This document shows positions 23,382-23,953 of a stretch of 64,000 bases of DNA, in pieces. This DNA is from Escherichia coli (GTDB lineage: Bacteria > Pseudomonadota > Gammaproteobacteria > Enterobacterales > Enterobacteriaceae). The translations under genes and the position numbers were made by a program. Position 1 is the stretch's first letter, and every line of letters starts with the position of its first letter. The stretch lies in NCBI RefSeq assembly GCF_030013595.1, contig NZ_CP122768.1; one strand, 5' to 3'. A model generated the notes under the pieces. It saw nothing but the letters and a program-made list of their open reading frames with translations, was not told where the DNA came from and did not search any database.

Positions 23382-23498
23382 GGTGGGCGATTCTAATTAG
23401 CCAACAGGATTCGCGCCACTCATTTTTCTATGCTTATATTTAGTTTTGCACCTTATTACTTCACTACGTGATCACTTTATTGATGGTTATTAAACCAA

Positions 23499-23873
23499 TC
23501 ACCAGCAAGAAGTGAAAAAACTGTGAGTAAGCGGGTGATAAATGGTAAAAGTCATCTTGCTATAACAAGGCTTGCAGTGGAATAATGAGGCCGTTTCCGT
23601 GTCCATCCTTGTTAAAACAAGAAATTTTACGGAATAACCCATTTTGCCCGACCGATCATCCACGCAGCAATGGCGTAAGACGTATTGATCTTTCAGGCAG
23701 TTAGCGGGCTGCGGGTTGCAGTCCTTACCGGTAGATGGAAATATTTCTGGAGAGTAATACCCAGTCTGTTTCTTTGATAATTGCGCTGTTTTTCCGCATG
23801 AAAAACGGGCAACCGACACTCTGCGCCTCTTTGAGCTGACGATAACCGTGAGGTTGGCGACGCGACTAGACAC
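23499..23873 (-). CDS. yceQ: Doubtful ORF antisense to the rne leader (yceQ-like)
   Basis: ORF 23499..23873 (-), 124 aa; no recognisable domain; a similar ORF is annotated in K-12 as yceQ. Likely non-coding. Confidence 0.2.
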
Positions 23874-23953
23874 GAGGCCATCGGTTCACACCCGGAAAGG
23901 CGTTACTTTGCCCGCAGCTTAGTCGTCAATGTAAGAATAATGAGTAAGTTACG
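23593..23953 (+). promoter_or_regulatory. rne 5' untranslated leader (RNase E autoregulatory element)
   Basis: 572-bp gap between rluC and rne; in K-12 rne has a ~360-nt structured leader that RNase E cleaves to autoregulate. Extent set from that knowledge; stem-loops not folded here. Confidence 0.5.

Follow-up and report, generated by a model that had tools for sequence, protein, structure and literature searches.

The 572-bp spacer between rluC and rne of E. coli is very probably regulatory DNA for the essential gene rne, and not a protein-coding locus. We assign a probability of about 0.93 to this explanation as a whole: the structured leader of the rne mRNA, the feedback exerted through it, and the chance nature of yceQ, the open frame on the opposite strand. 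The leader, the autoregulation and the non-coding status of yceQ are all already known. The window analysed here is a stretch of 64,000 nucleotides of the E. coli chromosome, in which the spacer is flanked by two divergent genes.

22422..23381, minus strand: rluC coding sequence (23S rRNA pseudouridine synthase), the left neighbour, divergent from rne; from the open reading frame (ORF) list, annotated as rluC in K-12 and O157
23954..27139, plus strand: rne coding sequence (RNase E, 1061 aa); from the ORF list, annotated in K-12 and O157

The spacer (23382..23953) is exactly 572 bp long. It is 100% identical to that of the O157:H7 strain PV15-279, and 5,413 of the 5,425 complete genomes with a match reach an identity of at least 99%. 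Only 3 of its 572 positions differ from K-12 MG1655, all of them upstream of the leader. The intergenic gaps were ranked in the annotated O157:H7 record, which is identical to the window over the spacer. Among the 53 gaps in about 50 kb of this record, the rluC–rne spacer is the largest (median 59 bp; runner-up 399 bp), which bears out the remark of the first-pass annotation that the gap is very long for so compact a region.

The orthologous region was compared in 80 species across Enterobacterales. The genes rluC and rne are divergent in 80 of 80 loci. The spacer also keeps its length: the median is 572 bp, 65 of 81 spacers measure 546–579 bp, and the longer ones contain discrete insertions. 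This length is unusually constant although part of the spacer, 23442..23520, is poorly conserved in sequence (0.34–0.53 in 20-bp windows across 81 spacers). The stretch adjoining it on the rluC side is better conserved, and is presumed from its position to be the 5' untranslated region (UTR) and core promoter of rluC.

23382..23441, minus strand: rluC-proximal conserved block; conservation 0.62–0.80 across 81 spacers (20-bp windows)

Two small RNAs are annotated near the spacer in K-12. SraB lies between yceF and yceD and maps to about 21564..21732 (minus strand) of the window; FlgO lies at the 3' end of flgL, just downstream of rne, and maps to about 27258..27335 (minus strand).

The part of the spacer next to rne contains a promoter and a transcribed leader, the latter with three structured domains and a single-stranded end.

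23557..23586, plus strand: rne promoter P1, with the -35 box TTGCTA, an 18-bp spacer and the extended -10 box TGgAATAAT; from a promoter scan and conservation
23593..23953, plus strand: rne 5' untranslated leader, 361 nt; from the Rfam rne5 match (23593..23929), the P1 start and covariation
23595..23634, plus strand: hp1, the 5'-terminal stem-loop (leader nt 3–42); from the Rfam structure projected on E. coli
23644..23700, plus strand: hp2, the conserved sensor stem-loop (leader nt 52–108, helices 3–6), whose apical part CGCAGCAATGGCGTAAGACGT is nearly invariant
23706..23920, plus strand: hp3, a large branched domain (leader nt 114–328, helices 7–14)
23921..23953, plus strand: single-stranded 3' segment with the ribosome-binding region AATAATGAGTAAGTTACG, unpaired in the Rfam structure; conservation 0.82–0.92

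When both strands were scanned between 23300 and 24000, P1 was the sole sigma-70-like site. The promoter block AAAGTCAnCTTGCTATAA...GCAnTGGAATAATG is almost invariant across Enterobacterales. Transcription from P1 is predicted to start at about 23593, some 7 nt downstream of the promoter, and this is also the first base of the Rfam match. A start at this position gives a leader of 361 nt, which is the published length (PMC1716169, PMC10989929). The leader coordinates proposed in the first-pass annotation (23593..23953) agree with the start of the Rfam match.

The leader matches the Rfam family RF00040 (rne5, the RNase E 5' UTR element) with 260.1 bits, against a gathering score of 180 (E = 2.3e-82). 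The match (23593..23929, plus strand) spans model positions 1–333 of 333, that is, the full length of the model. It is on the strand of rne and ends 24 nt before the rne ATG at 23954. The same element was found above threshold and at the same position in 17 of 20 diverse Enterobacterales loci tested, including loci that carry insertions of about 120 nt (see below).

To evaluate base pairing, 71 leaders were aligned independently with MAFFT, and the Rfam consensus structure was transferred to this alignment by way of the E. coli leader. As controls, the 3' partners were slid by 1–3 columns, and the columns were shuffled 500 times. Standard pairs occupy 89.0% of the 5,868 cells, double-sided changes occur in 42 of the 84 pairs, and the score for covariation reaches 0.211; the slid controls give 33–43%, 23–27 pairs and 0.060–0.077, respectively. 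On four of five measures, including the covariation score, the observed value was reached by 0 of the 500 shuffles, and on the fifth by 1 of 500. Examples of compensatory changes are found in helix 13 (UA in 43 sequences, CG in 28), helix 4 (AU in 23, CG in 23, UA in 9) and helix 11 (UA in 22, AU in 21, GC in 8). The paired columns contain 507 G-U cells and 200 A-C cells, and this excess of G-U indicates that the plus-strand RNA is the folded strand. As judged from the aligned sequences, the compensatory changes demonstrate selection on RNA pairing in the leader. The first-pass annotation had read the gap as the structured 5' UTR of rne, and this reading is supported by the full-length RF00040 match, by the covariation in 71 leaders and by the conserved promoter; the absence of a conserved leader structure, which would have spoken against it, is not what the alignment reveals.

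The individual domains behave similarly. In hp1 (a name given here by order, presumably that of Diwa et al. 2000), nine pairs in helices 1–2 have changed on both sides. Conservation in the spacer peaks at 23662..23681 (99%), which is the apex of the second hairpin; leader positions 72–91 do not vary among the 71 sequences, with two exceptions: A74, which is at least 90% conserved, and G83, where either G or A occurs. We equate this second hairpin (23644..23700) with hp2. Helices 7–14 of hp3 are 62–100% paired, with many compensatory changes.

The minimum free energy fold of 23593..23953 (plus strand), a prediction that had been suggested in the first-pass annotation, reproduces most of the Rfam helices, including most of those of hp3. 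Its energy is no better than that of shuffled sequences (z = -0.66), and for the antisense strand there is a slight advantage over its own shuffles (z = -1.91). Folding energy was thus rejected as a criterion, and covariation was decisive instead; the energy z-score alone would miss a leader structure that covariation strongly backs.

Some other candidates in the region were examined and set aside. Rfam mir-316 matches 23454..23532 (minus strand) with E = 0.7 and 19 bits, where the gathering score is 80; this is a chance match. Sense ORFs of 30–39 aa were considered as possible upstream ORFs in the leader and were not retained. The start of the 34-aa ORF is where the leader is least conserved, beside the point at which other genera carry repeat insertions; the 39-aa ORF has its ATG upstream of the P1 start.

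Upstream of P1, the spacer contains a further conserved element.

23521..23542, no strand assigned: double DnaA box CTGTGAGTAAgcGGGTGATAAa, 51–72 bp upstream of the P1 start; sequence match to a published box

A DnaA ChIP-seq peak has been reported at K-12 position 1,144,772, labelled '(yceQ) rne', with a double box beneath it (PMC11317965); CTGTGAGTAAgcGGGTGATAAa is the reverse complement of this published box. The double box is kept in Enterobacteriaceae and is not found in Erwiniaceae, Yersiniaceae and Morganellaceae; among genera, it is absent in Erwinia, Pantoea, Serratia, Yersinia, Dickeya and Photorhabdus. Such elements might suggest that the spacer is long mainly for the sake of transcriptional control (multiple rne promoters, DnaA binding and the rluC promoter), with the RNA structure playing a secondary role. 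The ChIP-seq peak and the double box upstream of P1 fit this view, as do the conservation of the rluC-proximal block and the three rne promoters that are reported in PMC10989929, citing Ow 2002. However, the transcribed leader, at 0.75, is better conserved than the sequence upstream of P1, at 0.61, and conservation of 23442..23520 is poor; moreover, the compensatory changes bear witness to selection on RNA pairing, and the transcriptional elements add to the leader rather than replace it. We regard a mainly transcriptional purpose of the spacer as highly improbable.

In several genera, the rne leader is interrupted by imperfect-palindrome insertions of 108–128 nt. They were observed in Pseudocitrobacter, Klebsiella oxytoca, Pluralibacter, Citrobacter, Kluyvera, Erwinia persicina and a metagenome-assembled genome (MAG). 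Seven of them are at the same hp3 junction, after the equivalent of window position 23734 (loci L005, L008, L009, L012, L017, L020 and L029); others are found after 23632 (L049 and L079, the latter only 54 nt) and after 23754 (L080). The inserts fold as long hairpins (-24 to -57 kcal/mol). RF00040 is recognized above threshold across the insert in 8 of the 9 such loci tested, L080 being the one that fails. Aligned with the core sequences of the primers ERIC1R and ERIC2, the Citrobacter inserts score 12–16 of a possible 22. By this resemblance, the inserts appear to be ERIC-like (enterobacterial repetitive intergenic consensus). RNase E-dependent mRNA decay is reported to change in the presence of ERIC elements, and ERIC-like inserts within the rne leader itself may for this reason merit attention.

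The opposite strand of the spacer carries the frame known in K-12 as yceQ.

23499..23873, minus strand: antisense ORF of 124 codons with a GTG start; from the ORF list, judged non-coding

Of its 375 nt, 281 (75%) are opposite the leader and 94 (25%) extend over P1 and the sequence upstream. The first-pass annotation described it as the only ORF in the gap. It is the only one of at least 100 aa, but the gap also contains smaller ORFs of 62 aa (minus strand) and of 39, 34 and 30 aa (plus strand). K-12 yceQ (b1085) is a 106-aa version that starts at an internal GTG and corresponds to window 23499..23819, with an identical product. The 124-aa form begins at a GTG further upstream in this frame, and the two forms fall into one 90%-identity cluster.

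The name yceQ (b1085) stands for a database label and not for a demonstrated protein. The label is still 'DUF2655 domain-containing protein', and the name survives only in source annotations. The RefSeq genomes annotated by PGAP have no feature under the spacer and leave yceQ uncalled in 5,400 or more genomes. In NZ_AP018488.1, the locus tag RS06950 is missing between those of rne (RS06945) and rluC (RS06955); the gap could have been left by a yceQ-like call in an earlier annotation that was then withdrawn.

An ORF of at least 124 aa was found in 0.95% of 2000 dinucleotide-preserving shuffles of the spacer, where the average was 66 ± 19 aa. Its length is mildly unusual for one region and unremarkable genome-wide. 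There are also stop-free antisense frames of 142–188 codons in Kosakonia, Enterobacter sp. Bisph1, a MAG and Edwardsiella hoshinae. These are out of register with yceQ, from which they are separated by several frameshifting indels. Stop codons may be generally scarce opposite the leader, which would explain why ORFs recur there.

Scans of the 124-aa product against Pfam-A and NCBIfam returned no family at E <= 1, in line with the earlier impression that the ORF lacks recognizable protein features; Pfam scans of the 62-aa and 39-aa ORFs gave no match. The predicted yceQ product contains 8 cysteines in 124 residues. Codon usage was scored by a log-likelihood trained on the 36 long genes of the window. 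The antisense ORF scores -0.17 per codon, which is below all 36 real genes (0.32 ± 0.10; minimum 0.11), while out-of-frame shadow ORFs score -0.04 ± 0.16. The GC content at first codon positions is 0.40 in the antisense ORF and 0.65–0.72 in rluC and rne.

The E. coli yceQ frame was then traced through the alignment of Enterobacterales spacers. Among the traced spacers, only those of E. coli and E. albertii keep it intact; the protein cluster evidence adds E. marmotae. In Citrobacter, where nucleotide identity is still 90%, an in-frame stop or frameshifting indels interrupt it in every case. All genera beyond Citrobacter are broken as well, with up to 11 stops and 18 indels in this frame. The minimum numbers of substitutions per site at the three codon positions of yceQ are 0.96/0.82/0.98. 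For the same 37 genomes, the values are 0.13/0.04/1.28 in rne and 0.44/0.24/2.00 in rluC. There is no three-base periodicity or third-position excess in the yceQ frame of these 37 genomes, and no codon-level purifying selection on yceQ. The comparison across Enterobacteriaceae foreseen in the first-pass annotation thus leaves a broken frame without periodicity on one strand and covarying leader pairs on the other.

Similarity searches at the protein level give a different impression: tblastn with YceQ identified similar segments in 78 of the 80 fetched loci. These matches were rejected as protein evidence, because the frames are interrupted and the matches track how well the leader is conserved as nucleotide sequence. 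Conservation of an ORF, and tblastn matches with it, can stem wholly from constraint on the RNA of the opposite strand.

The 90%-identity cluster that includes the 106-aa and 124-aa forms has 141 members of 69–124 aa, and all those listed are from Escherichia or Shigella. The C-termini of the YceQ-like proteins are variable, with truncations within both Shigella and E. coli; the Shigella forms have divergent C-termini of the kind expected from an insertion at the 3' end of the ORF. In E. coli O121 strain 201805972, the IS110-family element ISEc11 is located at about 23515, within the last codons of yceQ and upstream of P1. Similar insertions at the same spot are suggested by the altered C-termini in Shigella, and the poorly conserved stretch around 23515 seems to tolerate them.

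These patterns are relevant to the alternative that yceQ is a real, young small protein, specific to Escherichia and Shigella, born de novo antisense to the leader and expressed only in conditions that have not been sampled. E. coli, E. albertii and E. marmotae do all have the frame unbroken, its length exceeds that of 99% of the ORFs in the spacer shuffles, and K-12 still has it annotated. However, intactness within the genus is expected anyway at 98–99% nucleotide identity. The lack of periodicity and of genic codon usage, the eight cysteines in a product without family match, the variable and truncated C-termini, and the calls dropped by PGAP all argue against a protein.

Published experiments point the same way. 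In ribosome profiling under three conditions, Price et al. saw no reads for YceQ; they also reported that transposon insertions within YceQ are tolerated and that the ORF is disrupted in some strains (PMC5053530). Goodall et al. obtained many insertions in yceQ, in one orientation only (PMC5821084). According to Rousset et al., dCas9 is toxic at yceQ only in the orientation that blocks rne, and coding-strand CRISPRi guides cause no fitness defect (PMC6242692). The Salmonella ortholog of yceQ is an annotated pseudogene, yet it is strongly selected in transposon screens (PMC3487940). The strand dependence of the transposon and CRISPRi effects at yceQ is explained by rne (PMC5821084, PMC6242692), and published work traces the seeming essentiality of yceQ to the promoter and leader of rne that it contains. 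With ribosome profiling, named beforehand as a check on the ORF, giving no reads, and guides on the coding strand without effect, we consider a young protein extremely improbable. The judgement of the first-pass annotation that the ORF is more likely an annotation artefact than a gene is sustained by the broken frame, the absence of periodicity, the non-genic codon usage, the lack of a family and the missing ribosome-profiling reads.

The minus strand could have a function without encoding a protein. Its transcription across the leader might yield a non-coding antisense RNA or a long 5' extension of rluC, forming with rne a divergent excludon, in which the transcripts of two adjacent genes overlap, and controlling rne or rluC through RNase III or transcriptional interference. 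ExcludonFinder includes rne–yceQ among 16 divergent excludons, present in at least 50% of 58 MG1655 transcriptomes (PMC12288877), and the folding of the antisense strand, slightly better than that of its shuffles, agrees with this possibility. Yet the listing may merely reflect the overlap of the rne leader with an annotated 'gene'. No sigma-70-like promoter was found on the minus strand in 23300..24000, covariation and the asymmetry between G-U and A-C favour the plus strand, and guides blocking minus-strand transcription gave no fitness defect (PMC6242692). Such an excludon therefore appears unlikely. Given the ExcludonFinder listing, there may be some minus-strand transcription opposite the leader (PMC12288877). 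It is similarly doubtful that a low-level minus-strand transcript pairs with the leader and adds a second layer to RNase E homeostasis, or couples rluC and rne. If an antisense RNA were functional, the yceQ frame would be a meaningless passenger on it.

The preferred reading, regulation of rne through its own leader, would operate as follows. Transcription from P1 (23557..23586) would begin near 23593 and produce the 361-nt leader, predicted to fold into hp1, hp2 and the large branched hp3 domain. In the published mechanism, described here from secondary citations, RNase E activity in excess would lead the enzyme to bind hp2 and would accelerate the decay of its own mRNA. Such decay would hold RNase E near a set level, a homeostatic control. 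The yceQ frame would be a chance open frame, its conservation the shadow of the constraint on the RNA and on the promoter, and its reported 'essentiality' would reflect damage to the expression of rne. We infer that the conservation, the length and the 'essentiality' of yceQ are by-products of the cis elements of rne.

This scheme relies on earlier work on the same element. The 361-nt UTR mediates feedback in cis (PMC1716169, PMC10989929). Hairpin 2 alone is sufficient for feedback regulation according to PMC1716169, citing Diwa 2000. RNase E binds the hp2 stem-loop without cutting it, which speeds cleavage elsewhere in the rne mRNA, as summarized in PMC10303841, citing Schuck 2009. For this E. 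coli sequence, the same secondary accounts report that the half-life of the mRNA is under feedback by RNase E (PMC1716169, PMC10989929 and PMC10303841, citing Jain & Belasco 1995, Diwa 2000 and Schuck 2009).

The locus offers a clean annotation case: yceQ, long listed as essential in K-12, is an open frame over the promoter and the autoregulatory leader of rne. Recognizing this artefact prevents mis-scoring in lists of essential genes, in recoding projects and in pan-genome counts.

Several known systems resemble this one. In the leaders of rnc (RNase III), pnp (PNPase) and Bacillus subtilis rny, as in that of rne, an enzyme senses the 5' region of its own mRNA and adjusts its lifetime. The leader hairpins of rnc and pnp are cut by RNase III, unlike hp2 of rne. 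In B. subtilis rny, cleavage takes place in the 5' UTR and the early ORF, whereas hp2 of rne is bound and not cut, and cleavage is stimulated elsewhere in the transcript (PMC10303841). As for the misleading frame, ypaB (nrdA promoter), sroG (ribB riboswitch) and psrO (pnp promoter region) are comparable to yceQ: their apparent phenotypes come from cis control of an adjacent essential gene, and they were revealed by strand-specific CRISPRi or transposon bias (PMC6242692, PMC5821084). The case of yceQ differs from them in that the overlapped element is a 361-nt structured autoregulatory leader and not just a promoter. The closest comparison is with RF00040 (rne5) of E. coli and its relatives, and here the element in the window is that very element: the match is full-length, the layout of hp1, hp2 and hp3, the 361-nt leader and the conserved hp2 apex are the same, and nothing of substance differs.
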